A stretch of DNA of 40,000 nucleotides from an uncultured Candidatus Nitrosotenuis sp. (GTDB taxonomy: Archaea > Thermoproteota > Nitrososphaeria > Nitrososphaerales > Nitrosopumilaceae). The translations under genes and the position numbers were made by a program. Positions within the stretch are counted from its first letter, which is position 1; every line of letters starts with the position of its first letter. The notes below the pieces were generated by a model. The model worked only from the letters and a program-made list of their open reading frames with translations. It had not been told where the DNA came from and ran no database searches. The stretch spans positions 155,129 to 195,128 of the forward strand of contig CAZTUP010000006.1 in the NCBI GenBank assembly GCA_964616415.1. Direction: 5' to 3'. Positions 1-14,179 of the stretch are shown piece after piece.

Positions 1-5
1 TAGAG

Positions 6-866
6 TTGCAGCTTGGATTTTTAGAAAAATTCCAACCACAAAAGATTCAACAAAATAATGTGATATTTTGCGGCAGCGGGGATTCATTATGTGCAGCACT
101 GCTTGCTGAATCATTTTCTAATTATGTGGTACGGGCCCATGACCCACTCGAACTGGCAAAAAACAAATCTCTGGGAAGATCAAAGCACGCCTACTTTGTG
201 TCAATATCTGGCAATACGATATCTACTATTCGTGCGGCAAAGACTGTGCGTCATTCCACTGCAATAACTAGGAACTCACACAGCAAACTTGGCAAAACCT
301 GTGATGGTATGATACTGCTTGACTATGTTGACTCGCAGATTCTAAGCTCTGGCAGCATTGGGTTTTTGGCAAGTGCATTAACGTGCATCTCTTTGGTGCA
401 TGACTTTAAAATACAAAACGCAAAAAAACTATTCCAATCTGCAAAATCGCACACAAAGAAGATCATTCCAAAAAATCAGATCTATTTTCTTGGCAACCAA
501 TACACCTACCCTATTGCAATGTATGCATCTGCAAAACTAGGTGAGATTTTGGGAATGGATTCTCACTATGAGCGAATAGAGCAATTCTCACACATGGGAC
601 TTTTCTCTGCAAGACCTGGCGATACCGTGATTATATTTGAGCAAACAAATTCTCATATTGCGTCTCTGGTATCGAATCTAAGAAAACTTGGACTGTACGT
701 GCATAATCCGTCAATTCCATCCAAAAACAAAATAGATCAAATTTTGTATTACACATTTGTCTCGCAATTCATCTCATTGTATTTGGCGCGCAAAAAAAGA
801 ATCAAGGATTGTTATTTCATTACGCAAAAGAAAACTCGAGCTGCAAGTTCTGCAATGATCTACTAA
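6..866 (+). CDS. SIS (phosphosugar isomerase/binding) domain protein with two SIS-like modules; 5' end may be cut by the window edge
   Basis: ORF 6..866. It has an N-terminal SIS-like 'VIFCGSGDSLCAALLAE...YFVSISGNT' and a second module 'IYFLGNQYTYPIAMYASAKLGE'. The frame stays open to position 3, so the TTG at 6 may not be the true start. Confidence 0.55.
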   Translation: MQLGFLEKFQPQKIQQNNVIFCGSGDSLCAALLAESFSNYVVRAHDPLELAKNKSLGRSKHAYFVSISGNTISTIRAAKTVRHSTAITRNSHSKLGKTCDGMILLDYVDSQILSSGSIGFLASALTCISLVHDFKIQNAKKLFQSAKSHTKKIIPKNQIYFLGNQYTYPIAMYASAKLGEILGMDSHYERIEQFSHMGLFSARPGDTVIIFEQTNSHIASLVSNLRKLGLYVHNPSIPSKNKIDQILYYTFVSQFISLYLARKKRIKDCYFITQKKTRAASSAMIY

Positions 867-933
867 ATTTTTCAAAAAATCGATCTTTTTTTAATAAGAT
901 TTAATACCCCTCCGAAAAGAAATCCAATCAAAT

Positions 934-3126
934 ATGAAGTACAAGGCAACTGAGCAGATCCTAAAGATCATCAAAAACAAGGAAAACATCCGTAACTTTG
1001 GTGTAATTGCTCACGTAGACCATGGAAAGACAACCATGAGTGACAACTTGCTGGGCTATGCAGGAATCATCTCACCTCAGGCTGCAGGTCGTGCGCTGGC
1101 CTTGGACTCTATGAAGCTTGAACAAGACCGTCAGATGACAATTGTTCAGGCAAACGTTACACTACTTTTCGAAAAAGCCGGTCAGGAATATGTCGTAAAC
1201 ATGATTGATACACCAGGACACATTGACTTTACAGGACGTGTCACCAGAAGCCTCAGGGCAATCGATGGCGCAGTCGTGGTATCTGATTCTGTAGAAGGTA
1301 TAATGACACAAACTGAAACTGTAACTCGACAGGCCCTAGAAGAGCGAGTCAGACCAGTTTTATACATCAACAAAATCGACAGACTCATCAAAGAGCTAAG
1401 ACTTACTCCTGAGAAAATGCAGGAATGGCTTGCAAACATTGTTTCTACTTTTAATGGATTAATCGACACATATGCAGAACCTGAATACAAGGAAAAATGG
1501 AAGGTCTCAATTCAGGATGGCTCTGTTTCATTTGGCTCTGCAAAGGACAGATGGGGATTCAATATCGACATCATGAAGGAAAAAGGAATCTCATTTAAGG
1601 ACATTTACGCAGCATACCAAGACGGCGCAAACGTTGATGATCTAGCAAAGAAAGCACCGCTGGCAGAAGCAGTACTTGGAATGGTTGTAAAGCACCACCC
1701 ACCACCACACGTTGCACAAAAATACAGAATTCCAAAAATCTGGAAAGGTGACTTGGAGTCTGATATTGGGAAAGCACTTTTGAATTGTGATGATAATGGT
1801 CCGGCAGTAATGATGATTGTAAACATGGCAATGGACCCTGCGGCAGGACCTGTCGCAATTGGGCGATTGTTCTCTGGAACCCTAAAAGATGGAATGCAGG
1901 TGCATCTAATTGATACTAAAAGAGAAGGCAAAATCCAATCTGTGAACTTTTTCATGGGCAACCAAAGAGAAATGGTCGGAGAACTGGGTGCTGGAAACAT
2001 TCCAGCTTTATTGGGACTAACTGAGGCCAGAGCAGGACAGACTTTGGCTACAGTCAAAGATGTTGCAATATTTGAGGGAATCAAATATGTCTCAGAGCCT
2101 GTCGTACAAATCGCAGTAGAGGCAAAATTCCCAAAAGACTTACCAAAACTTGTGGAAGCACTGCGTAGAATTACAATTGAGGATCCAAACCTTGTGGTAA
2201 AAATCAACGAGGAAAGCGGAGAGACTGTAATTGCTGGAATGGGCGTATTGCACTTGGAAATTGCTACCTCGCTAATTGGTGATGCCGGCGTTCAAATTGT
2301 AACATCGCAGCCTTTGATTAACTATAGAGAAACCATCCAGAGCGGCTCTGAAGTTGTAATGTCAAAATCACCAAACAGACACAACAAGATCTTTATGAAA
2401 GTAGAACCACTAGAACCAGAAATTGCTGACATGATACGAGCCGGTCAGCTATCTGAGATGAAGGACAAAAAAGAGATGGAAAATCTTTTGCGCTCTAAAG
2501 GATGGGATACTGATACTGCAAAACGTGTAATGAGATATGACTCTAGAGGAAACATTATGATCAACGGCACCAAAGGTGTCCAGTTTATCCAAGAATCAAC
2601 TGACTCTATTTTGTCTGGATTTGAGGAAGTAATGAAGGAAGGCCCACTGGCAAGAGAGCAGGTTAGAAATTGTAAATTCACATTTACTCACTTTGTTCCT
2701 CACGAGGACACTGCACACAGGGGTCTATCACAATTATCACCAGCAGCAAGACGCGCATGCATGGGTGCAATGCTAAAGGCACAACCAATACTATTAGAGC
2801 CAATGCTTGGAATCGAGGTCAGAGTACCACAGGACATGATCGGAAACGTTGCATCTGTTTTGTCTGGCAAAAGAGGCAAAGTCATGGACATGCAGCAAAA
2901 AGGTGTCACAAGCATCATAGTAGGCGAGATTCCAGCTTCTGAGACATTTGATATTTCTGAGGTAATGAGAGGCCAGACTGCCGGTAAAGCAATGTGGAAT
3001 ACACACTTTAAGGCGTGGACTCCAATGCCAAAATCAATCCAAGCCAATTTGATTGCTGAAACCAGAAAGAGAAAGGGATTACCACCAGACCCACCAACAG
3101 CAGACGAATTTATCGACAAAGAGTAA
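934..3126 (+). CDS. fusA: Translation elongation factor 2 (aEF-2), GTPase
   Basis: 730 aa. GTPase motifs are 'AHVDHGKTT' (G1), 'DTPGH' (G3) and 'NKID' (G4). The diphthamide-region 'HEDTAHRG' is typical of archaeal/eukaryotic EF-2. An A/T-rich TATA-like stretch lies at ~886-907 upstream. Confidence 0.97.
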   Translation: MKYKATEQILKIIKNKENIRNFGVIAHVDHGKTTMSDNLLGYAGIISPQAAGRALALDSMKLEQDRQMTIVQANVTLLFEKAGQEYVVNMIDTPGHIDFTGRVTRSLRAIDGAVVVSDSVEGIMTQTETVTRQALEERVRPVLYINKIDRLIKELRLTPEKMQEWLANIVSTFNGLIDTYAEPEYKEKWKVSIQDGSVSFGSAKDRWGFNIDIMKEKGISFKDIYAAYQDGANVDDLAKKAPLAEAVLGMVVKHHPPPHVAQKYRIPKIWKGDLESDIGKALLNCDDNGPAVMMIVNMAMDPAAGPVAIGRLFSGTLKDGMQVHLIDTKREGKIQSVNFFMGNQREMVGELGAGNIPALLGLTEARAGQTLATVKDVAIFEGIKYVSEPVVQIAVEAKFPKDLPKLVEALRRITIEDPNLVVKINEESGETVIAGMGVLHLEIATSLIGDAGVQIVTSQPLINYRETIQSGSEVVMSKSPNRHNKIFMKVEPLEPEIADMIRAGQLSEMKDKKEMENLLRSKGWDTDTAKRVMRYDSRGNIMINGTKGVQFIQESTDSILSGFEEVMKEGPLAREQVRNCKFTFTHFVPHEDTAHRGLSQLSPAARRACMGAMLKAQPILLEPMLGIEVRVPQDMIGNVASVLSGKRGKVMDMQQKGVTSIIVGEIPASETFDISEVMRGQTAGKAMWNTHFKAWTPMPKSIQANLIAETRKRKGLPPDPPTADEFIDKE

Positions 3127-3131
3127 AAATG
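3109..3131. repeat. Direct repeat copy 1 (casposon target-site duplication = last aEF-2 codons + stop)
   Basis: 'tttatcgacaaagagtaaaaatg' recurs exactly at 11551-11573. The outer 'aaaaatg' is shared with the TIR, so the true TSD is probably 13-16 bp ('(tt)tatcgacaaagagt'). Confidence 0.85.
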
Positions 3132-3180
3132 AGATCCCCCCGTTTTGTGCGGGAGAATCTGCTGTTTGTCGTAATGCTTA
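3125..3180 (+). repeat. Casposon left terminal inverted repeat (56 bp)
   Basis: 'aaaaatgagatccccccgttttgtgcgggagaatctgctgtttgtcgtaatgctta' is the exact reverse complement of 11498-11553, checked base by base. Confidence 0.92.
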
Positions 3181-3549
3181 AGAATTTGATTTAGCATCAT
3201 TCTGGAATTTATTAAAATATCTGTCTCTCACTAGACTGTCTCTTTTTCGACCTGCCTTTATTTGTGAAATTGACCATCTTCTCATCCAGAGTATTTTATT
3301 TTTAGTAATATAGTAATGTGATTGACATGGTAGACTCCAGTTTCCGATAGATGGATAGATTGAAACTGTTTCACCATCCCAAGTTAGTTCCCACTCAGAA
3401 GGCCTGATTGGTATTACAACGAGTTCACCGCATCCACAAGCACATCTATGTGTAGATGTAGCAAAAGGAATTGAAATGTACAGGATTCCTTCTTTTATTT
3501 CGTCAGGAATTAATTCAACAAATTCATGATTGATAGTATTTAGTTTCAT
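3178..3549 (-). CDS. DUF6527-type Cys-rich protein, candidate E2-like/zinc-binding partner of the E1
   Basis: 123 aa. The signature is 'HRCACGCGELVVIPIRPSEWELTWDGETVSIYPSIGNWSLPCQSHYYITKNKILW' (C36, C38, C40, C75, H34, H78). The start overlaps the E1 stop as ATGA (3546-3549). The stop codon lies inside the TIR. Family assignment is from memory of the family pattern, not a search. Confidence 0.7.
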   Translation of the reverse strand: MKLNTINHEFVELIPDEIKEGILYISIPFATSTHRCACGCGELVVIPIRPSEWELTWDGETVSIYPSIGNWSLPCQSHYYITKNKILWMRRWSISQIKAGRKRDSLVRDRYFNKFQNDAKSNS

Positions 3550-4733
3550 TCAATATCATCATTTACGATTTCATTACACCCAATACTATACGTAGAATAG
3601 TGCTCATTTTCTAATTTATCATAGAACCCACACATTTTCTTCCATTTGATAACTGCCATGACGGCATTTAGGGCATTAATATCGGCTATTTGAATATTAG
3701 ATGAATATTCATCATCCTCATCCCTTCCAGAAAGAATTCTTGTTTTTGCGTGTTCATAAAAAGAAGCAGTGCATGTTGTCACTTGAGTTGAGCCGGTCAA
3801 TACTTCATTCGTTTTATCAATGCCAATTCCTACGTCAATGAATCGGATCTTCTTTTCTAATAGATATCTCACGATGGATTTTCTAGATGGAATTTTATCT
3901 ACACAGACAAATACCATGTCCATTGAATCTAGTTTAGAGGCATTTGATTCAGTAATAAATTCCGGATGTGGAAAAATTTTTCGGTGCATTCTGGAATAGA
4001 TTTCTGTAAACCACTCTACTTTTGGCATACCTTTTTCCAGATCTTTTCTGGTGGGTGCACCTGGTGATCTGAACGCATTATGATAATGGAATTCATCCCC
4101 ATCGAAAAGATGGATTTCTTCCACTGGTGTTTTAGCGATAAGATCGAGGATGTATGATCCTGTTCCACCTAAACCGACTATTGCGATTCGACCTTTTAAT
4201 TTTTCATTAATTGATATGATGCCTGCGCGACTTGAGGCAGTATCATAATAATTGAAGACAGATTCTTGTTCCGTGAGTGGGGTTTGTTTAAACGTCCTTG
4301 CAGTCACACTGTCATCTATGGCACGCGCCTGATTTTCAATTAAATGTACATAGTGTTCAATTTTTTTAAAGTAATTTTCGTATTTCCCGCCTTCGGTTGG
4401 TTTTTGTGAAAAAATATGTTTAGCCACAAGTCCTTCTTTGATTTTCTCATTGTTTGCGCCCCCTCCTAAACTATTCATCTGTGAGCCATTGTGATCACAG
4501 GGATAGTCTTCAGTCCATAATATTTGATGATCGTTCGGAGTCATTTTGAAACCTGTTATTGTGGAATGTGAAATTATTGAACCTCTCAGTATCTGTTTTT
4601 TAGCATTCACATACGGTACGTTATGAATAACTACGTCACTGTTAATAATCTCGATTTCATAACCTGCATTTATGATCTGTTGTAGATCATCATTATGACT
4701 TATTAGATCTGTGAACGTCAAAGCGCATTCCAT
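3546..4733 (-). CDS. ThiF/MoeB/E1-like adenylyltransferase with ~175-aa N-terminal extension
   Basis: 395 aa. It has the Rossmann 'IAIVGLGGTGSYILDLIA', the nucleotide/Arg-finger block 'LFDGDEFHYHNAFRSPG' (compare the ThiF DxDxVxxSNLxRQ) and a Mg-Asp 'VFVCVDK'. A Cys/Ser/Thr-rich loop 'TGSTQVTTCTAS' follows. An alternative TTG start lies at codon 5. Confidence 0.85.
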   Translation of the reverse strand: MECALTFTDLISHNDDLQQIINAGYEIEIINSDVVIHNVPYVNAKKQILRGSIISHSTITGFKMTPNDHQILWTEDYPCDHNGSQMNSLGGGANNEKIKEGLVAKHIFSQKPTEGGKYENYFKKIEHYVHLIENQARAIDDSVTARTFKQTPLTEQESVFNYYDTASSRAGIISINEKLKGRIAIVGLGGTGSYILDLIAKTPVEEIHLFDGDEFHYHNAFRSPGAPTRKDLEKGMPKVEWFTEIYSRMHRKIFPHPEFITESNASKLDSMDMVFVCVDKIPSRKSIVRYLLEKKIRFIDVGIGIDKTNEVLTGSTQVTTCTASFYEHAKTRILSGRDEDDEYSSNIQIADINALNAVMAVIKWKKMCGFYDKLENEHYSTYSIGCNEIVNDDIE

Positions 4734-4941
4734 TGACTACGTTAACATGCTTTCCTTCTACAAGGGTGCCTTTAGAATTGTCAGGCCCATGCGTGTACAT
4801 GACAGCAAACATCTCATCTGCACCATGTGATGGAAATGCCAGGTTAACTACTTCTGTGTAGCTTATTGTCTCCTTTTCCCATGTCTTATGTTGACCATTG
4901 ACAAATATCTGAAATTTGTCATGATGTCCTTTATCTTCCAT
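4693..4941 (-). CDS. Single-domain multiubiquitin-type ubiquitin-like (beta-grasp) protein
   Basis: 82 aa. 'KFQIFVNGQHKTWEKETISYTEVVNLAF...GTLVEGKHVNVVNGMRFDV' matches the remembered multiubiquitin-domain pattern (xIxVNGxxxxxxxxxISyxxVvxLAF...vxxGMxFxV). It is the first gene of the operon and overlaps the E1 ORF by 41 nt. Confidence 0.7.
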   Translation of the reverse strand: MEDKGHHDKFQIFVNGQHKTWEKETISYTEVVNLAFPSHGADEMFAVMYTHGPDNSKGTLVEGKHVNVVNGMRFDVHRSNKS

Positions 4942-5054
4942 AGTGATAGTTATAGTACGATGGTAATACGTTTGTCGATCGACTGATTATTGACCTTAGG
5001 TTAGTGCTATTTTGACAACATGTAGTCATCTAGAGTTTATGAGCAACTATCATG

Positions 5055-6917
5055 TCATATTTCGCTTTCCGGCTCATACTTTTCATCCTCAAACCAATCA
5101 ATTTCCTCTTTTGATATGATATTACCGACCAAATCAATAGGAATTGGATATGAATCGCAAAATGTCCCATCATGTAAAGACTTTAGATCAGAAAACCAGA
5201 ATCTTTTCTTGTCAGAATTTAGGTTAATTTTCCTCTCATATGGTTTGATTTGACCCACCTTGCTTAGTTTATTGAACAAAATCCCTGATTTGATATGTGT
5301 AGTCCTTGTGGTCTTGACTCGGATGTAAAACTGGCCGTCCCTGTCTATTTTGGAATCAATATGCTCTATTTCCTGTCTTTTTTCATGGTCAAAGCCTATT
5401 CCACGCTTTTTCCAAATCCCATTAAAACGATAAAACCCGTTGGACAGAAAAATGGCATCCGAGCCAGATTTGTCTAATTTCATCTGTCCAAGTTCTGGGC
5501 TGTCAAGACCTTCAATTTTCTTTCTACACGCTATAGAATCTGTAGCAAAAGCCACAACATCATTTTCCAAACCATATTTTTTAACAAAAGAGTACAGTTG
5601 CGCGCGAACAAATCCAGTTACGTATGATGCAATAACCGGGTTGAACAGGTTTCCCATCATTTGATTTGTTTTCTGCGCAGTTTTGCCATAAATTGAATTC
5701 AATATGATTTTGATTGGCTGTTGTAGTGGATTGTTTTGTTGTTTTAGATGTAGTCGTTTTTGATACATTGATTCAATAAAATTCTTGAATGGGCGTATAG
5801 AATTTTTGTTTGGAATAAACTGATATGATTCTAGTATTTTGTATTGGATTTGCGGATCATTGATTGCTCTTAGCTCATCTAGTGTGACAAAAGTCTTGAA
5901 TTGTCCTGACGGATAACAAATCGTTCCGTTCTTTTTTCTAAATGGAAATGGTGCAATTTTGACCTTTGGTGATACATTCGTATGTATGTAAAAAAATCCA
6001 ATCGCTGCATTATTCAAAACGCGGTTTGCTCTAATCCACCTACCTTTAATGAAATCTTGTATGGTTGTAAGGGCATATGGGTACGCAGAATTGACATCAT
6101 ATAGATAACACTCTCCAATGAACCCGCGCCGAATTAGTTCAAATCTTCCACCATAAAACGACTTTCTTGCCATTTCTTGGACTTCGTATTCTGTTTCATT
6201 AAACAGTGGAATGTTAATTCCATTATTGATCAAGACTTTTTCTGCCAGATAACCTGCCGAAATCCAATTTGCTGAATAAAATTGGAATACATCATAAAAC
6301 GTCTTAATCCAGTGTTCTGCCAAGTCTCGCGTAAAAATACAATCTTGGATGCAATAGTCTCTAACCTGATTTTTGTGCCTAGAATAGTAGAATTTTGATA
6401 AAATATTCCGTTTTTTCTTCATTTGCAGATATTCGGAGTCTAAATTCTTGATATTCTTGGCATATGCATCAGCAAGTGGAGCATTTTCATAGTATTGTGC
6501 AATGTCATAACAGTTTATCGAGTGATGATTTTTTGAAATGGTGAGTTTTCTTCTTTCAATATAATGAATTCTAAATCCATTGTATTGAAAGCATAATTCT
6601 TTTTTCCATAGATATGATTGCAGTATTTCTTTTGGCAATAGCTTCAAAATACATTCTGCATCATATCCCAAATTGTAAAAGAAAATCCATCGTCCTTCAT
6701 GCCTGAAAAGGAATTTCACTATTGTTTCAAATGTGATGTTTTGATCTAGGTAATTTCCTTGTGAGTCGGCAATTAGAAAGATGTTTCCAATGTCAGTTTC
6801 TGTGTCAATTCCAATTATTTCCCTTGATATATCAATTCGATTTGGACTGCGATTTTGTTTTCTAACTCTGATTCCGTCTAGTGTTCTATAATTAGAAATT
6901 GGAATAAAAAAATTCAT
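5055..6917 (-). CDS. Family B DNA polymerase, protein-primed (pPolB) type
   Basis: Exonuclease motifs are 'GIDTETD' (ExoI), 'YNLGYDAECIL' (ExoII) and 'YCIQDCIF' (ExoIII). Polymerase motifs are 'YDVNSAYPYAL' (A), 'KIILNSIYGKT' (B) and 'FATDSI' (C). The start is trimmed from the track's 7052 to the ATG at 6917, which forms an ATGA overlap with the upstream gene's stop. Confidence 0.9.
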   Translation of the reverse strand: MNFFIPISNYRTLDGIRVRKQNRSPNRIDISREIIGIDTETDIGNIFLIADSQGNYLDQNITFETIVKFLFRHEGRWIFFYNLGYDAECILKLLPKEILQSYLWKKELCFQYNGFRIHYIERRKLTISKNHHSINCYDIAQYYENAPLADAYAKNIKNLDSEYLQMKKKRNILSKFYYSRHKNQVRDYCIQDCIFTRDLAEHWIKTFYDVFQFYSANWISAGYLAEKVLINNGINIPLFNETEYEVQEMARKSFYGGRFELIRRGFIGECYLYDVNSAYPYALTTIQDFIKGRWIRANRVLNNAAIGFFYIHTNVSPKVKIAPFPFRKKNGTICYPSGQFKTFVTLDELRAINDPQIQYKILESYQFIPNKNSIRPFKNFIESMYQKRLHLKQQNNPLQQPIKIILNSIYGKTAQKTNQMMGNLFNPVIASYVTGFVRAQLYSFVKKYGLENDVVAFATDSIACRKKIEGLDSPELGQMKLDKSGSDAIFLSNGFYRFNGIWKKRGIGFDHEKRQEIEHIDSKIDRDGQFYIRVKTTRTTHIKSGILFNKLSKVGQIKPYERKINLNSDKKRFWFSDLKSLHDGTFCDSYPIPIDLVGNIISKEEIDWFEDEKYEPESEI

Positions 6918-7279
6918 GGACTTGGATTGCGCCAAGCCACATCTGGAATGTCTGTTTCCAGTCCTTGTTTGTGCTTTTTGAATGCGGAACGAATTTCTTT
7001 TAGCGACATGTCGATTGGATAATTTTCCTTGATTGCTTTGAAGTATCTCCAAGATGTCTTCATTTTGGCAGAGCGATTCTCGTTTGCCTTGATTAATCGT
7101 TGGATTACATCCTCTGTGGTTTTGGTCATTTTGGCAATCTTGGCGTTAAGGACACTTTTTTCGCCTTCCAATTGTCGTCTGAACTTTTTTAAAAACGCAG
7201 TCTCTCGAAATTCAGAGAGACGTTCGATTTCTTTTGTTATTCGTTCTATTTCGCTTCGTAGTTTTTCTAGTTTAGTCAT
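6914..7279 (-). CDS. Hypothetical coiled-coil/basic protein translationally coupled to PolB
   Basis: 121 aa. It has an N-terminal heptad-like 'LEKLRSEIERITKEIERLSEF' and a basic C-terminal half. Its stop overlaps the PolB ATG. Confidence 0.55.
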   Translation of the reverse strand: MTKLEKLRSEIERITKEIERLSEFRETAFLKKFRRQLEGEKSVLNAKIAKMTKTTEDVIQRLIKANENRSAKMKTSWRYFKAIKENYPIDMSLKEIRSAFKKHKQGLETDIPDVAWRNPSP

Positions 7280-7313
7280 TAACTAGTTTTATAGTACTAT
7301 ACTCTATGAAGAA

Positions 7314-7964
7314 GTGATAGAGCTAATGGCAAAATCTAGTGAATATACGCGAGAATTAAGTGAAAAACAAATCAAAACTTTACAAGCCAGATACAAGGGT
7401 TACATAAAACGCACTAGACGTGGATTCCTATCAACCAGTGAAAAAGAAAAACTGCTAAAAATCAGAAAATGGCAAGAGTCAGATGCTGAGATCTCTCAGT
7501 TTTTTTATGAGGTTAGAGAGAGTGCAAAAACTGCTTTTACTGACTTTGTGTTATTATGTGACACGTTAAATGAAAAAGAAATCGAGAGCATATTTTCAAA
7601 CAATTATTCTAAAACAGAATTATCCAAAATGCCAGACAGCATGAATTTCGAATTAATGGAACAGTATTACAGAAGTCATCCAATATTCAAAGATGTAATA
7701 CGATATATATTACAGGATCGTTCTGTTGTATCACTAAGTAATGTCAAGTCAGCAAAGAAATTAGAATTATTTTTGGATGATTCGTGGCAGGCCTATTTGG
7801 CACATGACTTGATTCGAATATGTTTGCAGTTCTTTAGGGAACACGGTTTTATTTCTACAAAAGCTCATGAACGACTTGCAGAAGAAGTGGAAGACATGAT
7901 AAATGTGGAAGTGTCACGCGGAATCAAACTAAAAAGACATGAGCGAACCAAAGGTTTTGTTTAG
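7314..7964 (+). CDS. Hypothetical protein (casposon cargo)
   Basis: 216-aa ORF divergent from the PolB operon. It starts at GTG 7314 or ATG 7326. No recognisable motif. Confidence 0.5.
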   Translation: MIELMAKSSEYTRELSEKQIKTLQARYKGYIKRTRRGFLSTSEKEKLLKIRKWQESDAEISQFFYEVRESAKTAFTDFVLLCDTLNEKEIESIFSNNYSKTELSKMPDSMNFELMEQYYRSHPIFKDVIRYILQDRSVVSLSNVKSAKKLELFLDDSWQAYLAHDLIRICLQFFREHGFISTKAHERLAEEVEDMINVEVSRGIKLKRHERTKGFV

Positions 7965-8008
7965 ATCAAAGATCAAATACTATTCATTCGCATATTTCAT
8001 TATCAAAG

Positions 8009-8260
8009 ATGTTCAGGTTTGTACGAAAATATAGGAAAATAAACGAAGATAACAGAAAACTAGTCGTTACGAATCAAGAATGGATACCGGATCATCAGGC
8101 GGACTTAGAGTGTGAAGAAGCAATCATCGAAGATAGACGCCGATTCGGCAGAGTACGGACACATCTAATGAGGCATTTACGACAGAAATATGGCTCCAAG
8201 ACGGCAAATAGGGCAATGTGGAGAGTAGGTAAACGAGGATCGAGAGATTCACGAGTATGA
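8009..8260 (+). CDS. Hypothetical small basic protein (casposon cargo)
   Basis: 83-aa Arg/Lys-rich ORF on the same strand as 7314..7964. No motif recognised. Confidence 0.4.
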   Translation: MFRFVRKYRKINEDNRKLVVTNQEWIPDHQADLECEEAIIEDRRRFGRVRTHLMRHLRQKYGSKTANRAMWRVGKRGSRDSRV

Positions 8261-8337
8261 ATCGTTTTAGTGTTGCATCATTTCAAATTAATTTCGATTT
8301 TTATAATAATGATCTAGAAAATATGAGTCCAAATACA

Positions 8338-9630
8338 TCACCGTATTAATTTTTGAGATGTGACAAGATATTTTTTGATCATGGTATTTTTTGGGTCTAA
8401 TTTTAGTGCCTTGTTATACCATTTTATTGCATCTTTGTGTTTTCCTAGATTACCTAATGCTATACCTTTGTTGCCAACTAGGACTGAATTATTTGGAACT
8501 AGTTTCAGTGCCTTGTTATACCACACCAAAGATTGTTTGTCTTTGTGAAGATAACCTAAAGCTGTACCTTTATTCATAAGCGCAGTTGCATCTTTGGGGT
8601 TGATCTTTAGTAGCTCATCTGAACAGATTATTGTTTCCTCATATTTTTGTAGTTTAAGTAATGCGGTGCTTTTGTTTGCAAGGGCGTTTGAATTTTTTGG
8701 TTCATTTTTCAAAGTTTTATTAAAAAATTCTAATGCTTTCTTATGCATACCTAAACTCCCAAATGCAGCTCCAATATTGTTTAGGGTAGTAATATCTTTA
8801 GGATTAATCTTCAGTGCCTTGTTATACCACTTTAGGGCCTCTCGAGGTTTGCCCAAGTTAAACAATGCAAATCCGATACTTCGTAGTGTAATGGCATCAT
8901 CTGAGTTTAGTTTCAAGGATTTATGAAACCACTTTAGGGCTTCACGGTGTTTTCCTAGATTACCTAATGCTATGCCAATAGCACCGACCGTTATCGCATC
9001 ATCTGAGTTTAGTTTCAAGGATTTATGAAACCACTTTAGGGCTTCACGGTGTTTGCCAAGTTTATCTAATGCGAGTCCAATGTTTGATATTACGATCGCA
9101 TCTTTAGGATTAATCTTCAGTGCCTTGTTATACCACTTTAGCGCCTCCTTGGTTTTCCCTAGGCGAGATAATACAACACCTGTGTTAACTGTCGAATTCA
9201 GATGTTTCGGATTGATGTTCAGCGCTTTTTCAAAATATTTCAAAGCAGCACGTAATTTACCCGACTCCCCAAGTTTAACTCCCTTGTAGGATAATGTACT
9301 TACATCACGCGGATTGAGCATAAGTACACGATCAAAATATTTCATAGCATGTTCAGGTTTATTCAATTTGGAGAATACAACTCCAATGCCACGTAATGCG
9401 TCTAAATTATTTGGATCATATTGCAAAATCTTACTGCCCAAAGTAAGAATTTTGTCATATCGTTTAATTTCAAACATATAATTAATTTGTTTTAATGCTG
9501 TTTGCAGATCAAAAGGTGCTCCCATCTCAGTATTCTTCAAAGATGATTCTAATCGATCAATTTTGCTTTCCAATTTAGACATCTTTAATTGTAATTTTTT
9601 TGGAATTCGTGTTCTTGTTTTCTGAATCAA
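8338..9630 (-). CDS. Tetratricopeptide (TPR) repeat protein, ~10 repeats
   Basis: 430 aa. It has a 34-aa periodicity with recurring 'EALKWYNKALKINPKD', after an N-terminal coiled-coil. Confidence 0.85.
   Translation of the reverse strand: MIQKTRTRIPKKLQLKMSKLESKIDRLESSLKNTEMGAPFDLQTALKQINYMFEIKRYDKILTLGSKILQYDPNNLDALRGIGVVFSKLNKPEHAMKYFDRVLMLNPRDVSTLSYKGVKLGESGKLRAALKYFEKALNINPKHLNSTVNTGVVLSRLGKTKEALKWYNKALKINPKDAIVISNIGLALDKLGKHREALKWFHKSLKLNSDDAITVGAIGIALGNLGKHREALKWFHKSLKLNSDDAITLRSIGFALFNLGKPREALKWYNKALKINPKDITTLNNIGAAFGSLGMHKKALEFFNKTLKNEPKNSNALANKSTALLKLQKYEETIICSDELLKINPKDATALMNKGTALGYLHKDKQSLVWYNKALKLVPNNSVLVGNKGIALGNLGKHKDAIKWYNKALKLDPKNTMIKKYLVTSQKLIR
8894..9054. repeat. Tandem 102-bp-period duplication inside the TPR gene (59 bp identical core)
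   Basis: 8894-8952 and 8996-9054 are identical ('gcatcatctgagtttagtttcaaggatttatgaaaccactttagggcttcacggtgttt'). Both encode 'GKHREALKWFHKSLKLNSDDA'. Confidence 0.85.
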
Positions 9631-10136
9631 TTTGAACGCTCCAAGTTAAGATCCGGTTTTACCTCAGTCATAACATTATGAGAGTCCAAGATCTTATTCA
9701 ACTCTTCAATGGATTCCTCATATTCAAACGCTTTATTGACTGCTTCAAGATTTTGTTCTAAGAACTTTTCTAATTTCTTTGGATTATTCTCCAAAACAAT
9801 CAAGGTTGTTTGTAAGGCATATAACTTTCCTAACACTTTATCTCTACGTCTAAGATGTATTGTCCTTTCTATAGTTCCGAATCCATACATTTTTGCACTC
9901 TTACATTGATCAAACTGAAAATCATCCATTAAAATTGCAAGCGCTGATGCTTTTCGATTAATTTTCTTTGTTACTTTAAGATTTGAAAATTTGAATATTG
10001 TTGGAATTTCTCCATCCATAGAAAAATCAGTACTTCTCCAAGGATATTCTTTCTTACAACAGAGCTTATCCCTTCTAAATAATCCCACGAATTTAAAATA
10101 TATCTCATTTTTATAAGCATGATCTAAAATTGACAT
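9627..10136 (-). CDS. Hypothetical protein downstream of cas1 (casposon)
   Basis: 169-aa ORF. It overlaps the cas1 3' end by 26 nt and the TPR gene start by 4 nt. No motif recognised. Confidence 0.5.
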   Translation of the reverse strand: MSILDHAYKNEIYFKFVGLFRRDKLCCKKEYPWRSTDFSMDGEIPTIFKFSNLKVTKKINRKASALAILMDDFQFDQCKSAKMYGFGTIERTIHLRRRDKVLGKLYALQTTLIVLENNPKKLEKFLEQNLEAVNKAFEYEESIEELNKILDSHNVMTEVKPDLNLERSN

Positions 10137-11190
10137 TAATACAAGAATTACGAAAATCCTGAATCATATTTTTAACAATAGTAATTTCTTGACACATTGA
10201 CATCCCATCCTCCCTTTTCAATCCATGTTTGAATTCATATGGTCTTTCAGACTGGAATTTCCTTTCTAATACTTCCAAGAACCTTCGAATCAGATCAGAA
10301 TCCATTACAACATTTCCATCTCTAGTATGAGTGTAATCCTTGAATCGTATTCCGTTCCTATCAAGAATAGAGAATTTGTAAACCGAATATTCAACTAACC
10401 AGCGAAAAGGTTCTATCAAATCATACACTAATGCTTGAAACGAGGTGTCTTGTTTATGATAAAACCCATAGTAAGGATCAAGACCCAAACCATTGATAAA
10501 CTTGGCAATCTCACCAGCTAATACAGTATAACCATAATTCAAGAGCGCATTGATCACATTTGAGGCATAGCGTTTTGAATTGACAAGACCACCGCCACGC
10601 CTAGATGAAAAGCCATGTCTTGCAGGAATGAGTTTGGTATAATTTAGAAAATAGTATCTTCCGCTTCCGGCTTCAATCTTGATTAATTCCTTGAGGTCTG
10701 TCTTTGAATCAATTTGAGAATGACACTGTTCCAGTTTTGAGATTCCATTTTGTAATTCTGGGTTTTCTAAAGATTTGAAGAAATTGATTTGAGATTGGAT
10801 TTTCTCTTTTAGAATCCATTTTTGTAATTGCAATACTTTGATTGGATCTCGAAATGTGTCATACTGACCCATCCTGTATTTTATTGCGGTATTGGAAACC
10901 ATTCCACCATTCATGAAGGAAACTGGATTGCCGTAGGTGTCAGTTAGAATTACGTTGATGTTGTTTTGGTTTAGAATGGAGATTGCTTCTGTGGAAACGT
11001 AGCCTTTTCCAGAGATTACAATTTTTTCGTAGGGAATTTTGGATACAAACCATTCCTCTTTACTCGAGATTCCTGTAATGTCATTTTGACCATTTTTTAG
11101 AATGAGTTTGTTATCTTTGACATTTATAGAAATTCCATAACCACGAAGCAATTTGACGTTATAGTGATTACGTTTACCACCTAAAGTCAA
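10111..11190 (-). CDS. cas1: Cas1-family integrase (casposase)
   Basis: 359 aa with a TTG start. The overall Cas1 layout is an N-terminal beta-domain 'NHYNVKLLRGYGISINVKDNKLILK' and a C-terminal helical catalytic domain ('LIEPFRWLVE'). It lies next to a TIR with no cas2 or array, which is the context typical of casposons. Confidence 0.85.
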   Translation of the reverse strand: MTLGGKRNHYNVKLLRGYGISINVKDNKLILKNGQNDITGISSKEEWFVSKIPYEKIVISGKGYVSTEAISILNQNNINVILTDTYGNPVSFMNGGMVSNTAIKYRMGQYDTFRDPIKVLQLQKWILKEKIQSQINFFKSLENPELQNGISKLEQCHSQIDSKTDLKELIKIEAGSGRYYFLNYTKLIPARHGFSSRRGGGLVNSKRYASNVINALLNYGYTVLAGEIAKFINGLGLDPYYGFYHKQDTSFQALVYDLIEPFRWLVEYSVYKFSILDRNGIRFKDYTHTRDGNVVMDSDLIRRFLEVLERKFQSERPYEFKHGLKREDGMSMCQEITIVKNMIQDFRNSCINVNFRSCL

Positions 11191-11192
11191 GT

Positions 11193-11477
11193 CTATAATT
11201 TGTCGATTTTACGAATGATTTGTTGTTGTATAATAACAAGTAAAATCATCCCAACTGCAAATAGAAAAATTCCAAATTGCGAATAAACGCTACCAATTAT
11301 TGTAAATAGTTTTATCTCCTCTTCTGCCTTTGAAGTAGCATCCAAGCCAATTGTGACACCCAAAATAAATAATGAGGCTCCAAAAATCGCAATAATAGAT
11401 CCAGTAGTTGTTACTACAGTTAATTGTGCATTTAATTTTGCAAGTTTTTTATCAAAATCATACCTATCCATTAACAA
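11193..11477 (-). CDS. Small membrane protein (2-3 TM) between right TIR and cas1
   Basis: 94 aa with hydrophobic segments 'IIAIFGASLFILGVTIGL' and 'FGIFLFAVGMILLVII'. It ends 2 nt before the cas1 start. Confidence 0.5.
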   Translation of the reverse strand: MLMDRYDFDKKLAKLNAQLTVVTTTGSIIAIFGASLFILGVTIGLDATSKAEEEIKLFTIIGSVYSQFGIFLFAVGMILLVIIQQQIIRKIDKL

Positions 11478-11497
11478 GTATTATCAATTGCAAACAA

Positions 11498-11553
11498 TAA
11501 GCATTACGACAAACAGCAGATTCTCCCGCACAAAACGGGGGGATCTCATTTTT
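11498..11553 (-). repeat. Casposon right terminal inverted repeat (56 bp)
   Basis: Exact reverse complement of 3125-3180. Confidence 0.92.
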
Positions 11554-11573
11554 ATCGACAAAGAGTAAAAATG
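11551..11573. repeat. Direct repeat copy 2 (target-site duplication; non-coding copy of the aEF-2 3' end)
   Basis: Identical to 3109-3131. Confidence 0.85.
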
Positions 11574-11621
11574 CAAAGCCCCCCCTCTTGGGCACAAAAA
11601 CTGAAGCTATTTCGTTATGAC
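11567..11621 (+). repeat. Degenerate TIR of a second, decayed casposon
   Basis: 'aaaaatgcaaagccccccctcttgggcacaaaaactgaagctatttcgttatgac' aligns by eye at roughly 60% with the intact TIR. Shared pieces are 'aaaaatg', the C6-7 run, 'ctg' and 'tttNcgtNatg'. It sits in the position expected for a TIR beside the TSD. Confidence 0.5.
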
Positions 11622-11686
11622 TAGATTATGACGTTAGTTAGGATTTGTTGGAAATCTGATAAATACAATATTGATTCTTTATTATT

Positions 11687-11974
11687 GTGGTTAAACAGGC
11701 TCCAGTAAGCATTGGATGGCAAACTGCGATGATCTTTATCCCGTATGCTTGGATTTACGGATTTTATAGAATTGAAAAACTCAGATTAGGCCTTGTTCTC
11801 CTGTTAATGGATTTTGGAATTACACTTGGAGCCAACATATTGTTTACTTGGCTTGGTTTTCCACCATATACAGTACTTGCAGTATGGATCGTTGTAGTCA
11901 TTTCATTGCCAGTTCGTTTCATACGAAAATGGTCTCGTGAATGGAATAGTAAATTTTCGTCTAGTGTATCTTGA
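11687..11974 (+). CDS. Small membrane protein (remnant casposon), syntenic with 11193..11477
   Basis: 95 aa with a GTG start and 2-3 TM segments. Its stop TGA overlaps the TTG of the cas1 fragment. Confidence 0.45.
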   Translation: MVKQAPVSIGWQTAMIFIPYAWIYGFYRIEKLRLGLVLLLMDFGITLGANILFTWLGFPPYTVLAVWIVVVISLPVRFIRKWSREWNSKFSSSVS

Positions 11975-12068
11975 CACTAAAAGGAAAGAAAAATCACTAC
12001 AATGTAAAATTTCTCAAAGGCTACGGTCATTCTGTTTCCCTCAAAGACAACAAAATAATTTTGAAAAT
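11971..12068 (+). pseudogene. cas1: Truncated cas1 (first ~32 codons only)
   Basis: 'MTLKGKKNHYNVKFLKGYGHSVSLKDNKIILK' matches the intact casposase N-terminus 'MTLGGKRNHYNVKLLRGYGISINVKDNKLILK' at 23/32 residues. Similarity stops abruptly at ~12068. The rest of track ORF 11971..12240 is unrelated low-complexity sequence. Confidence 0.8.
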
Positions 12069-12089
12069 GATCAATACCACTTCTAGTTT

Positions 12090-12263
12090 CTACATGTGTT
12101 TATCAAGAAAGCATTTTTCACATACTGTGCTGTCTAACCGGCTCATTGCAAATTCAATCTGTTTTTTATCTAGTCGCCCATGCTGTATGGTATTCAGAAG
12201 TTTCTCTTTATCAATTGGCTCAAACTCTTCATTACAGTGACATTTTTCACACTGACATTTCAT
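12090..12263 (-). CDS. Small Cys-rich (zinc-finger-like) protein, 57 aa, absent from the ORF track
   Basis: Hand translation gives MKCQCEKCHCNEEFEPIDKEKLLNTIQHGRLDKKQIEFAMSRLDSTVCEKCFLDKHM. It has a CxCxxCxC cluster plus CxxC. It lies antisense to the non-homologous tail of ORF 11971..12240. Confidence 0.4.
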   Translation of the reverse strand: MKCQCEKCHCNEEFEPIDKEKLLNTIQHGRLDKKQIEFAMSRLDSTVCEKCFLDKHM

Positions 12264-12314
12264 ACTAGTAACTAGTCAGAATAATTTATAATACATTTTT
12301 CAAAACCAGATTCA

Positions 12315-12479
12315 ATGGGCCTCTTCAAAAAGAAGGAAGAAACAAACGAAACTAAATGCAAGACATGCGGACTGGAACTGCACGACCCAGAGCGCCTAAA
12401 GCGTCATACCAACAAAGCTCACGGACACCTGCCTGCCAAGAAGATGGATGGACAAGACGGTGCCGGCGGAATGTGGTAG
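12315..12479 (+). CDS. Small C2H2-type zinc-finger protein, 54 aa, absent from the ORF track
   Basis: Hand translation gives MGLFKKKEETNETKCKTCGLELHDPERLKRHTNKAHGHLPAKKMDGQDGAGGMW. 'CxxC...HxxxxH' is a classical C2H2 spacing. Confidence 0.5.
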   Translation: MGLFKKKEETNETKCKTCGLELHDPERLKRHTNKAHGHLPAKKMDGQDGAGGMW

Positions 12480-12665
12480 TATTATTTTTGCACCAGATAC
12501 TTTTTGCCCTTTAATTCCAAGTCAATTCTGTCAATATCTGATATCGTTGGCTCGGAGCTTGTCATTTTATGATACATGCGTGTGGTTATGACCATGTTCA
12601 TACCAATCCACAAAATACCATAATAGAGATATGTTGTTCAAATTATGCAGACACTGTAGGACACA

Positions 12666-12917
12666 TTGGAATTTGTCAGAAAAATAAACCAAGACGACTT
12701 TGTCATAATAACAAACAGACTGCGAACCGACTTTAATCTGGTATTTTACAAAGCAGATGATCCGTCAATCATGGAATCATTCAAGATTTTCACTAGGGTC
12801 AAAAACATCAAGGCCACATTATACAAAAACGGAACCTTGTTGGTTCGAGGTGATGCCGCAACACCAGAATATCAACATGTGTTGGATGTCATAGCTAGCA
12901 TACTGGGCTCGCAATGA
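12666..12917 (+). CDS. Hypothetical small protein, possibly resembling the RNase HIII N-terminal (DUF3378) domain
   Basis: 83 aa with a TTG start. 'ATLYKNGTLLVRGDAA' resembles the 'YxSGKvlfQG' motif of that domain. This is a weak assignment from memory. Confidence 0.4.
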   Translation: MEFVRKINQDDFVIITNRLRTDFNLVFYKADDPSIMESFKIFTRVKNIKATLYKNGTLLVRGDAATPEYQHVLDVIASILGSQ

Positions 12918-12945
12918 TATTTACAAATAATCTTGGTTTGGTGGT

Positions 12946-13365
12946 ATGATGATGTCTCAAAAAGTCTGGCTGGGTGGAATATACCTAAAAGAAGAGGGTG
13001 GCTATGCGCTTGTCTTGCGTTCATTACACCACTACAAAAAAAGACTGCGCAACATTAGGAATTCGCCAGAAATCAAAGATGCGCCAATGTTTGCACAAAT
13101 AGTCGAACAAGAGGCAATGAAGGCATATCCACTAGTTGGCTCACTGATAAAAAAAATCAGCGATGCACTGCAAAACCAAGATACACTAAAGAGCCTAGAA
13201 TCTGATCTAGTATTATTTGAGAAAGCCCTAAACTGTTATCAAACCGACATACAAAAAATCGACTCTGATTCATTTTACTCTGATCTAATCCAAGACAAAA
13301 ATATGGCAAATGCAGACCTGCCAAACATCAAATCCGCACTAGCAAGAATAGCGGAATTTTCTTAA
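12946..13365 (+). CDS. Hypothetical protein
   Basis: 139-aa ORF, predicted helical. No motif recognised. Confidence 0.45.
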   Translation: MMMSQKVWLGGIYLKEEGGYALVLRSLHHYKKRLRNIRNSPEIKDAPMFAQIVEQEAMKAYPLVGSLIKKISDALQNQDTLKSLESDLVLFEKALNCYQTDIQKIDSDSFYSDLIQDKNMANADLPNIKSALARIAEFS

Positions 13366-13396
13366 TCTCTAAAAAGACCATACACAATACCAATCC

Positions 13397-13612
13397 ATGA
13401 AAGACGCGCAATGCAAAAAATGCCTGCAGAAATTCCAGCAAAAAGACATTTACACAATACAGCAGTTCCAATACCGAAAGATACCGCCATACCGATGGAC
13501 AGTAGATTTTTTCACTAATCAAAGCATAACTGAGTGGGATTCATTTTGCGAATCCTGCCTTACTCAATATGGACAAATCTCATACACTGAATATGAAAAA
13601 TCAAAAACCTGA
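13397..13612 (+). CDS. Hypothetical small protein with CxxC...CxxC (zinc-ribbon-like)
   Basis: 71 aa with 'CKKC' near the N-terminus and 'CESC' near the C-terminus. Confidence 0.4.
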   Translation: MKDAQCKKCLQKFQQKDIYTIQQFQYRKIPPYRWTVDFFTNQSITEWDSFCESCLTQYGQISYTEYEKSKT

Positions 13613-13648
13613 TTGAATTATATCTATAAAATCTGGGAATAAATCAAA

Positions 13649-14104
13649 ATGAGAAAATCAAACATCTATTCATCAGGAAATAGGCGCAAAATAAACCCAA
13701 ACTGGTTCACAAATCAAACCAGTATGAAAGACATCTCCAGTACAATTCAATCCAAGGACCACAACATCTATCATGTTTATTTCAAAAATGGCTCCAAGAC
13801 AAAACTTCACATCCATAATGGGAATCAGATCCTAATTGCAACTAGTGGCAAGGGGATATTGGAAATATTCAAAAAACAGCAAAACAAAAAAGCTAACTTT
13901 GGCATAACCAAGACAGAATCAATCCGTCTAAATCCCGGGGACATTGTATACATTCCAAAAAACACTCTGCACACTCATGGCTCTATTGGCAAGGCAATAT
14001 TTTCTCATATTGCAATCAATATTTTGCCTTCAAAAAATACCGAATACAAAACTAATTGGTATGAATCCGATTTTAAGAAACTAGCGACTAGTCTGATATC
14101 ATAA
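13649..14104 (+). CDS. Cupin-domain protein
   Basis: 151 aa. 'KLHIHNGNQILIATSGKGILE' and 'GDIVYIPKNTLHTHGS' fit cupin motifs 1 and 2. Confidence 0.6.
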   Translation: MRKSNIYSSGNRRKINPNWFTNQTSMKDISSTIQSKDHNIYHVYFKNGSKTKLHIHNGNQILIATSGKGILEIFKKQQNKKANFGITKTESIRLNPGDIVYIPKNTLHTHGSIGKAIFSHIAINILPSKNTEYKTNWYESDFKKLATSLIS

Positions 14105-14179
14105 GAAAATTCAATCAAATCATCACTAATGATTTAGTCCAAGTGTTTATCAATCTGTAAATGATTATTTTAAACAGCT

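Follow-up and report, generated by a model that had tools for sequence, protein, structure and literature searches.

What does an operon for ubiquitin-like protein conjugation do at the very end of an archaeal transposon? The question is raised by a 40,000-nucleotide (nt) stretch of contig CAZTUP010000006.1 from an uncultured Candidatus Nitrosotenuis sp. (positions 155,129 to 195,128), referred to here as the window. It holds a casposon, a transposon that encodes a Cas1 homologue, and three minus-strand genes are packed between the left end of this casposon and the gene for its DNA polymerase. Very probably the trio is a complete Type II Bub operon, carried as accessory cargo in the slot next to the terminal inverted repeat (TIR) and downstream of the gene for the protein-primed PolB (pPolB). 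The casposon is about 8.4 kb long, belongs to family 1, and has recently entered the EF-2 gene of its host at the 3' end. This host is a Nitrosotenuis-like ammonia oxidiser of the Nitrosopumilaceae and not a Nitrosopumilus proper. Neither the kind of system nor the mechanism is new: the family has been characterised biochemically and is typically carried on mobile elements. What is new is the context.

The name Bub was given by Ye, Gong, Chambers and Corbett (bioRxiv 10.1101/2024.11.21.623953) to operons formerly called 6E/DUF6527. Type II comprises BubA, a ubiquitin-like protein (Ubl), BubBD, an E2-E1 fusion, and BubE, a DUF6527 protein. During conjugation, the Ubl is esterified first to a Tyr of the E1 crossover loop (Ubl~Tyr) and then to a Ser of the E2 (Ubl~Ser) (Ye et al., bioRxiv 10.1101/2024.11.21.623953); these oxyester intermediates make the pathways biochemically unusual.

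The trio and its catalytic residues

The three genes are as follows.

4693 to 4941, minus strand: bubA, 82 amino acids (aa), a single beta-grasp Ubl ending in ...NKS; Pfam Multi_ubiq PF14452, 2e-11
3546 to 4733, minus strand: bubBD, 395 aa, E2-E1 fusion; DUF6791 at aa 15-165 (1e-45) and ThiF at aa 180-329 (1e-16)
3178 to 3549, minus strand: bubE, 123 aa, DUF6527 Ser/His protease with a Cys4 zinc site; Pfam PF20137, 2.6e-23

Each Pfam match exceeds its curated cut-off, and the 395-aa BubBD is also matched above cut-off by NCBIfam PRK06153.1-4 at 3e-143. The genes are adjacent and co-oriented, and the same order recurs in bacteria and archaea wherever a contig spans all three (29 of 31 loci). 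bubA and bubBD overlap by 41 nt, or by 29 nt if BubBD begins at the TTG of codon 5, the start called in 391-aa relatives; bubBD and bubE overlap by 4 nt (ATGA). By called gene coordinates, all archaeal relatives have a start-stop overlap of 26-41 nt.

Residue conservation was read from MAFFT alignments, each of 33-52 homologues that come from many phyla of bacteria as well as from archaea. In the E2 portion of BubBD, Ser109 (in the motif FSxKP) and His69 are present in 33/33 sequences and Lys111 in 32/33, and all three are invariant in the 52-sequence alignment. In the E1 portion, Asp279 and the crossover-loop Tyr343 are found in 36/36 and Arg222 in 35/36, the latter being invariant among the 52 sequences. 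The adenylation-site columns G187/G189/G190/G192 and D211/D213 are invariant, and the crossover-loop stretch of aa 325-352 contains no Cys. Cys36, Cys38, Cys40, Cys75, Ser67 and His78 of BubE are each kept in all 36 homologues. BubA ends in (D/N/S)(K/R)S in 34/34 homologues. These positions agree with the residues reported by Ye et al. (bioRxiv 10.1101/2024.11.21.623953), namely Y342, S106 and the adenylation residue R219 in E. coli BubBD, an invariant Lys and His accompanying the Type II catalytic serine, and a Ser/His protease with a Cys4 zinc site in BubE. Ye et al. show that BubE reverses conjugation and propose it as a negative regulator.

Relatives of known structure point the same way. 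BubA aligns to the last beta-grasp domain of BubA from E. coli ZDHYS365 (PDB 9cd2) out to the C-terminus, with NKS against DKS. The E1 domain of BubBD matches Citrobacter BubCD by sequence (1e-5), by profile (1.6e-10) and by fold (Foldseek E 5e-14, using a full-length AlphaFold2 model with pLDDT 84). The sequence of BubE has no relative in PDB. On the basis of the family matches, the PDB relatives, the conserved catalytic residues of Ye et al. and the constant gene order, the trio is assigned to the canonical Type II Bub operons (formerly 6E/DUF6527), with a minimal single-domain Ubl.

The closest characterised relative, the Type II operon of E. coli ZDHYS365, shares the gene order, the E2-E1 fusion, the Ser/Lys/His set of the E2 domain, the crossover-loop Tyr and the adenylation Arg. 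It further shares the Cys4 site and Ser/His dyad of BubE, the ...KS end of BubA and the lack of a JAB peptidase. In contrast, the window BubA has one beta-grasp domain in 82 aa, whereas E. coli BubA has three in 222 aa; the host is an archaeon, and carriage is on a casposon and not on a tRNA-inserted bacterial island. Between the window BubBD and the bacterial homologues found, identity is only about 41-49%. Bil (BilABCD) and Type II cyclic-oligonucleotide-based antiphage signalling systems (CBASS) with Cap2/Cap3 are likewise E1/E2-based prokaryotic conjugation systems that occur in defence islands or mobile elements and have a dedicated deconjugating peptidase. They differ in using Cys thioesters and a JAB/JAMM peptidase, and CBASS conjugates the CD-NTase, not a Ubl. 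Assignment of the trio to Type II CBASS was rejected, with PADLOC giving only weak E1-E2 matches to the adenylation domain of BubBD (E no better than 8e-8) and none for BubA or BubE. No JAB, CD-NTase or effector occurs in the Pfam-scanned casposon ORFs, which did not include the TPR protein and orf94.

Conjugation and deconjugation have been demonstrated for the E. coli and Citrobacter Bub systems only (Ye et al., bioRxiv 10.1101/2024.11.21.623953), and the steps proposed here are drawn by homology to them. A BubBD dimer would adenylate the C-terminal carboxylate of BubA (Ser82) by means of the GxGxxG loop, Arg222 and Asp279. BubA would then be handed as an oxyester to Tyr343 of the crossover loop and transferred to Ser109 of the fused E2 domain, aided by Lys111 and His69. 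It would end on a lysine of a target protein, from which BubE, with its Cys4 zinc site and Ser67-His78 dyad, would take the tag off. By this analogy with the tested systems, such a mechanism can be expected with high confidence.

Two features of the proteins stand apart from the usual Ubl pathways. Type II BubA ends in Ser (last codon 4696-4698), unlike Type I BubA and other Ubls, which end in Gly or Gly-Gly, and therefore the residue to be adenylated should be a serine carboxylate. BubBD also has a cysteine, Cys79 (codon 4497-4499, in a YPC motif of the E2-like domain), that is present in 33/33 homologues and in at least 90% of 52 Type II BubBD proteins. A conserved catalytic cysteine is said to be absent from the Bub family E2 (Ye et al., bioRxiv 10.1101/2024.11.21.623953). 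Cys79 was considered as a cryptic catalytic cysteine and dropped, as Ye et al. put an invariant serine at the canonical E2-cysteine position and S106A kills activity.

An earlier reading of the window from sequence only had delimited the same three minus-strand ORFs and their 41-nt and ATGA overlaps, all of them exact by the ORF list. It had recognised a multiubiquitin beta-grasp protein, an intact E1/ThiF adenylation site and a DUF6527-type protein. The profiles of all three families score above their cut-offs, and the adenylation motifs that it quoted fall on invariant columns. Two of its descriptions need completion: gene 2 is indeed an E1, and the N-terminal E2-like DUF6791 domain that makes it an E2-E1 fusion was missed; gene 3 was called Cys/His-rich and is more precisely a BubE Ser/His protease with a structural Cys4 zinc site. 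That reading also related the operon to bacterial E1-E2-Ubl systems. The relation stands, and is closer than proposed, since the trio is assigned to Type II Bub itself, which uses Tyr and Ser oxyesters and not thioesters.

The casposon and its integration site

The element that carries the operon is a family-1 casposon of about 8.4 kb. The call is made because it has perfect TIRs, a target-site duplication (TSD), a Cas1 without a helix-turn-helix (HTH) domain, a pPolB and an empty site in sister strains. From left to right, its parts other than the trio are as follows.

934 to 3126, plus strand: EF-2 gene, the integration target, whose 3' end is the attachment (att) site; 730-aa ORF, with Pfam GTP_EFTU/EFG domains on the identical protein of contig L090
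3109 to 3131, plus strand: left copy of the TSD, a 23-nt repeat TTTATCGACAAAGAGTAAAAATG identical to 11551-11573 and spanning the last EF-2 codons and the stop
3124 to 3180: left TIR of 57 nt, with 100% complementarity to 11498-11554 and an alignment to the TIR published for NitAR1-C1
5055 to 7052, minus strand: pPolB; Pfam PF03175 DNA_pol_B_2, 5.5e-27; 59-67% identical to pPolB of related casposons
6914 to 8260, both strands: small casposon genes orf121 (minus), orf216 (plus) and orf83 (plus), found by tblastn beside pPolB in L037, L039, L041, L047 and L075
8338 to 10136, minus strand: TPR-repeat protein of 430 aa and orf169, accessory casposon genes; the TPR protein has homologues in casposons L036 and L041
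10111 to 11190, minus strand: casposase, a Cas1 homologue of 359 aa without HTH domain; Pfam Cas_Cas1 (1e-48) at aa 18-309 and no other domain
11193 to 11477, minus strand: orf94 of the ORF list, a small hydrophobic protein beside the right TIR; a weak homologue adjoins bubA in L088
11498 to 11573: right TIR (11498-11554) and right TSD copy (11551-11573), pairing with the left copies
11574 to 12066, plus strand: remnant of an older tandem casposon, comprising a TIR-like end at 11574-11640 and, at 11971-12066, an N-terminal piece of Cas1 with 69% identity over 32 aa

The direct repeat TTTATCGACAAAGAGTAAAAATG had no chance match in 100 shuffles. By analogy with the study of the Ca. N. koreensis casposase (PMC8464041), the true TSD is probably the 13-nt sequence ATCGACAAAGAGT at 3112-3124. 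The stop codon of bubE (3178-3180) forms the innermost three nucleotides of the left TIR, in which a G+C-rich hairpin and a run of T follow directly. Both the location of the operon inside a casposon and that of the bubE stop inside the left TIR had been proposed in the sequence-only reading and are borne out by the TIRs, the TSD, Cas1, pPolB and the strains with an empty site.

Those strains are represented by four other metagenome contigs (L090-L093), which encode an EF-2 protein identical to that of the window and have flanks that are 98-99% identical. They lack window positions 3132-11550 (8.4 kb) and retain one TSD copy, after which comes the old casposon remnant that is also seen in the window. 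The blastn matches to L091 are given below.

Window 1-3141: L091 9068-12208, 98% identity
Window 11551-11656: L091 12176-12280, 94% identity
Window 11971-14392: L091 12885-15305, 99% identity

Integration is precise and recent because near-identical strains form an occupied/empty-site pair. The pair is a natural record of very recent mobility of a family-1 casposon. The remnant begins directly after the right TSD, and therefore the new element has integrated in tandem next to a fossil. This fossil consists of a TIR-like sequence resembling the TIRs of NitAR1 and NitAR2 and, about 330 nt on, a plus-strand Cas1 N-terminal fragment of 32 aa. In the empty-site strain L090, a 193-aa HEPN_AbiV gene (12312-12893) lies beside the TIR of the remnant, in the stretch that matches window 11657-11970. 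The window has instead a different small membrane-protein ORF (11687-11974). With HEPN_AbiV, the same att site has a second defence-like gene placed next to a TIR.

The casposon resembles NitAR1-C1, NitSJ-C1, NitAR2-C1, NitNF5-C1/C2 and NitDev-C1/C2 in its Cas1 without HTH, its pPolB, its conserved small genes and its similar TIR. Like the named family-1 casposons (Krupovic 2014, 2019), it targets the 3' end of EF-2 and has a closely similar TSD. Element-specific cargo near the ends is typical of these casposons and includes the defence-type nucleases OLD, HEPN, Cas4 and HNH (Krupovic 2014, 2019). It differs in that none of the named elements has a Ubl-conjugation system; it is a distinct casposon, and strain-level presence and absence are documented for it. 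Relatives of its Cas1 in metagenomes number 47, at 47-88% identity. The closest relatives found reach at most 88% over a 122-residue fragment and 81% at full length.

Some smaller observations concern the other casposon genes. orf121 sits where Krupovic 2014 (PMC4046053) places the candidate terminal protein of family-1 casposons. The block pPolB-orf121-orf216-orf83 occurs in both orientations relative to Cas1, one way in the window and L075 and the inverse way in L041, L037, L039 and L047. The family-1 casposon as a whole is found in either orientation relative to EF-2. Within the gene of the 430-aa TPR protein, 8 copies of a 102-nt periodic repeat at 8381-9186 encode 34-aa TPR units.

Descent and exchange of the cassette

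Copies of the trio linked to a TIR came to light only when the closest BubBD homologues were looked up individually by exact protein. In four further contigs, the bubE stop is directly followed by a family-1 TIR and a TSD-like copy of the EF-2 end (BubBD identity 73-83%).

L088: BubBD 73%; the EF-2 3' end follows beyond the TSD, in the same arrangement as in the window
L086/L087: BubBD 83%; a TIR and TSD with another TIR and a fragment of Cas1 behind them (tandem array)
L033: BubBD 82%; also keeps the junction of the last 27 pPolB codons with bubA
L032 (GCA_025450795.1, JANRHI010080477.1): BubBD 75%; GmrSD and Schlafen-like genes on the inner side

The junction between BubE and the TIR (stop codon, 2-4 nt, TTACGAC...) is kept to the nucleotide in L032, L033, L086/L087 and L088. 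A neighbour-joining tree (no bootstrap) groups the window and the four TIR-linked copies in one clade. The nucleotide-exact junction points to a single acquisition of the trio followed by descent within casposons. Against five relatives, the ratio of nonsynonymous to synonymous divergence (dN/dS) within the clade is 0.06-0.27 for all three genes (0.07-0.27 for bubE), with dS of 0.4-2.7. These ratios indicate strong purifying selection on bubA, bubBD and bubE.

Nested in the clade as the sister of the window copy is the trio of NitDev-E2, an element of Ca. Nitrosotalea devanaterra (NDEV.0580-0582). It has the same three genes of the same sizes, the 41-nt overlap and the upstream element described below, and is 87% identical in BubBD, 89% in BubA and 81% in BubE. 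Its homology to the window stretches from about 110 nt upstream of bubA to the stop codon of bubE and no further. A copy outside casposons is nested in the casposon clade, with homology limits at the cassette edges; the cassette has therefore passed from one kind of element to the other, casposon and integrase element, and it probably left the casposon. Both NitDev-E2 and NitNF5-E1 of Ca. Nitrosopumilus adriaticus are tyrosine-integrase (XerC) islands at tRNA genes and not casposons (PMC6563490).

Upstream of bubA lies a conserved non-coding element.

4964 to 5017, minus strand: TATA-like TGTCAAAATAGCAC at 5004-5017, block AAGGTCAATAATCAGTCGATCGACAAACGTATTA at 4964-4997, palindrome GTCGATCGAC at 4974-4983

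This element of about 50 nt accompanies the trio in all six clade members, including the non-casposon NitDev-E2. In the block at 4964-4997, 23 of the 34 positions are invariant in the 6 copies, at a coding dS of 0.4-2.7, where synonymous sites are near saturation. The block is more conserved than the synonymous sites of the genes behind it. It would represent a putative promoter of the cassette's own, with an operator over the start site.

Archaeal Bub operons are already on record, though undiscussed; the casposon context is not. Table S1 of Ye et al. (bioRxiv 10.1101/2024.11.21.623953) lists Ca. Nitrosopumilus adriaticus among the Type II operons. The supplement of Krupovic 2019 (PMC6563490) lists the trio without comment on NitDev-E2 and NitNF5-E1, two non-casposon thaumarchaeal elements, as "ThiF" and hypothetical proteins. 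For NitDev-E2 the ThiF gene alone is annotated and the trio is not discussed (PMC6563490). The literature search found no published description of Ubl-conjugation cargo on casposons, in agreement with the sequence-only reading, which knew of none. A comparison of casposons, which that reading had also proposed, shows the trio to be variable cargo, found in the window and the four TIR-linked contigs. This casposon is the first in which a Ubl-conjugation system has been found, and a whole lineage of casposons has conserved that cargo. The locus also places Type II Bub firmly in ammonia-oxidising archaea, here with a minimal Ubl of 82 aa.

Beyond this lineage, BubBD homologues number more than 7,000. 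None of the 31 Bub loci in the genome collection lies near Cas1 or pPolB. A scan of viral contigs with pPolB found nothing, and one with the BubBD profile gave 4 distant matches (37-43%). Pfam assigned no family to 10 flanking ORFs of the TIR-linked contigs.

Role of the operon

For the role of the cargo, the evidence leans slightly towards a module for defence or stress, of benefit to the host and through it to the casposon. The leaning exists because archaeal relatives and bacterial Bub operons sit among defence or mobile-element genes. The NitDev-E2 copy is surrounded by a Hachiman HamA-helicase, a type I restriction-modification (R-M) system, a CARF protein and a Cas4-like nuclease. Other archaeal relatives have as neighbours AIPR with AAA_15/21, type III R-M, SocA with transposases, or an integrase. 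In bacteria, Bub operons are found within defence loci or mobile elements, and regulators associated with them respond to DNA damage and control known immune operons as well (Ye et al.; EMBO J 2026). A PADLOC survey of 48 casposons reports a lower density of defence genes than in pipolins.

Several results weigh against an intact Bub operon serving as defence cargo of a casposon lineage. No Bub operon has yet been found to protect against phage (Ye et al. discussion; EMBO J 2026), so the defence role is one by association. The known Bub regulators CapW, CapH with CapP, and CapK with CapS are all lacking beside this copy, which differs in this from the E. coli ZDHYS365 operon and has the conserved palindromic upstream element. 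The N-terminal domain of BubBD has no significant Foldseek match in PDB (best E 0.1), with E2/UEV folds dominating the top of the list. The short contigs L032, L033, L086 and L088 show no second TIR, Cas1 or full pPolB. Bub genes are missing from the 47 metagenomic loci with related casposases, 6 of which have both Cas1 and pPolB, and from the 8 catalogued thaumarchaeal casposons (Krupovic et al. 2019, PMC6563490). Bub is therefore not a core casposon function.

The same distribution bears on the idea that the operon works for the casposon itself. Here a casposon sub-lineage would have gained Bub a single time and retained it at the TIR junction as an integral part of the element. Proteins tagged by it could be the casposase, pPolB, the terminal-protein candidate, or a replication or translation factor of the host; alternatively, it could exclude rival casposons from the EF-2 att site. 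The BubE-TIR junction, kept over a dS of about 0.8-1.6 in five diverged casposon ends, fits this idea, as does the orientation of the operon, which lies directly downstream of pPolB and reads the same way. The att site is evidently contested, with tandem or remnant casposons in both the window and L086. Even so, the same cassette with its upstream element exists outside casposons, in NitDev-E2 (87%), in a second archaeal clade and in thousands of bacterial operons, most family-1 casposons do without Bub, and no casposon gene co-varies with it. A service to the casposon is unlikely on this evidence; if true, it would offer the first natural setting in which to identify Bub targets and the Bub role. 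A stabilising, addiction-like or abortive module, in which toxic conjugation is held in check by BubE as antidote and the element is retained, is improbable. It would accord with the reversal of conjugation by BubE and its proposed place as a negative regulator, with the gene overlaps, which suggest coupled expression, and with the position of the operon at the very end of a mobile element in both the casposon and NitDev-E2. The published expression work in E. coli gives no sign of toxicity, and the proposal is pure inference.

That the operon is a decaying passenger without current function is highly improbable. The ThiF gene of Ca. N. adriaticus NF5, the host of NitNF5-E1, is annotated in two pieces (Krupovic 2019 supplement, PMC6563490), and L033 looks like a casposon fossil. 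In the window, however, the ORFs are intact and no catalytic residue is missing, comparison with five relatives gives a dN/dS of 0.06-0.27, and the TIRs are perfect around a recent insertion. A chance placement near the transposon of a sulfur-carrier or cofactor pathway, with a MoaD/ThiS protein and a MoeB/ThiF-type adenylyltransferase, has a negligible probability. The sequence-only reading had named such a fixed chromosomal pathway as one case that would overturn its own proposal. Its trace is a set of weak ThiF/MoeB matches, which cover the adenylation domain only and reach 17-29 bits against NCBIfam cut-offs of 150-376, whereas PRK06153 exceeds its own. BubA ends in NKS and not in GG, sulfur transfer has no use for a fused E2-like domain or a BubE protease, and the genes lie inside the TIRs of an element that is missing from sister strains. 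The sulfur-carrier pathway is refuted by this C-terminus, these scores, the fused domains and the location.

A defence or stress module, the favoured role, would have company in the TIR-proximal slot. The slot contains the Bub trio in the window and, in the empty-site strains, an AbiV-type HEPN gene of the neighbouring remnant, and GmrSD and Schlafen-like genes stand by the L032 copy. Together, these cases suggest a trade in defence-like cargo between the slot next to the TIR in thaumarchaeal casposons and other integrated elements. The idea is useful for casposon biology and for picking a tractable system in which to learn Bub function. In L032, positions 195-4675 hold GmrSD (type IV restriction) and a Schlafen/AlbA_2 gene on the inside of the TIR-linked trio, with no Cas1 or pPolB within 7 kb; this locus may be a larger casposon-derived defence island.

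In the rest of the window, tRNA and Rfam scans over its whole length found nothing. Downstream of the casposon site, a host gene at 14180-17443 encodes a 1087-aa secreted or anchored protein with about 10 fibronectin-III-like repeats and a C-terminal membrane segment. PurL, PurF and PurP of the window cluster at 90% identity or more with Ca. Nitrosotenuis proteins.

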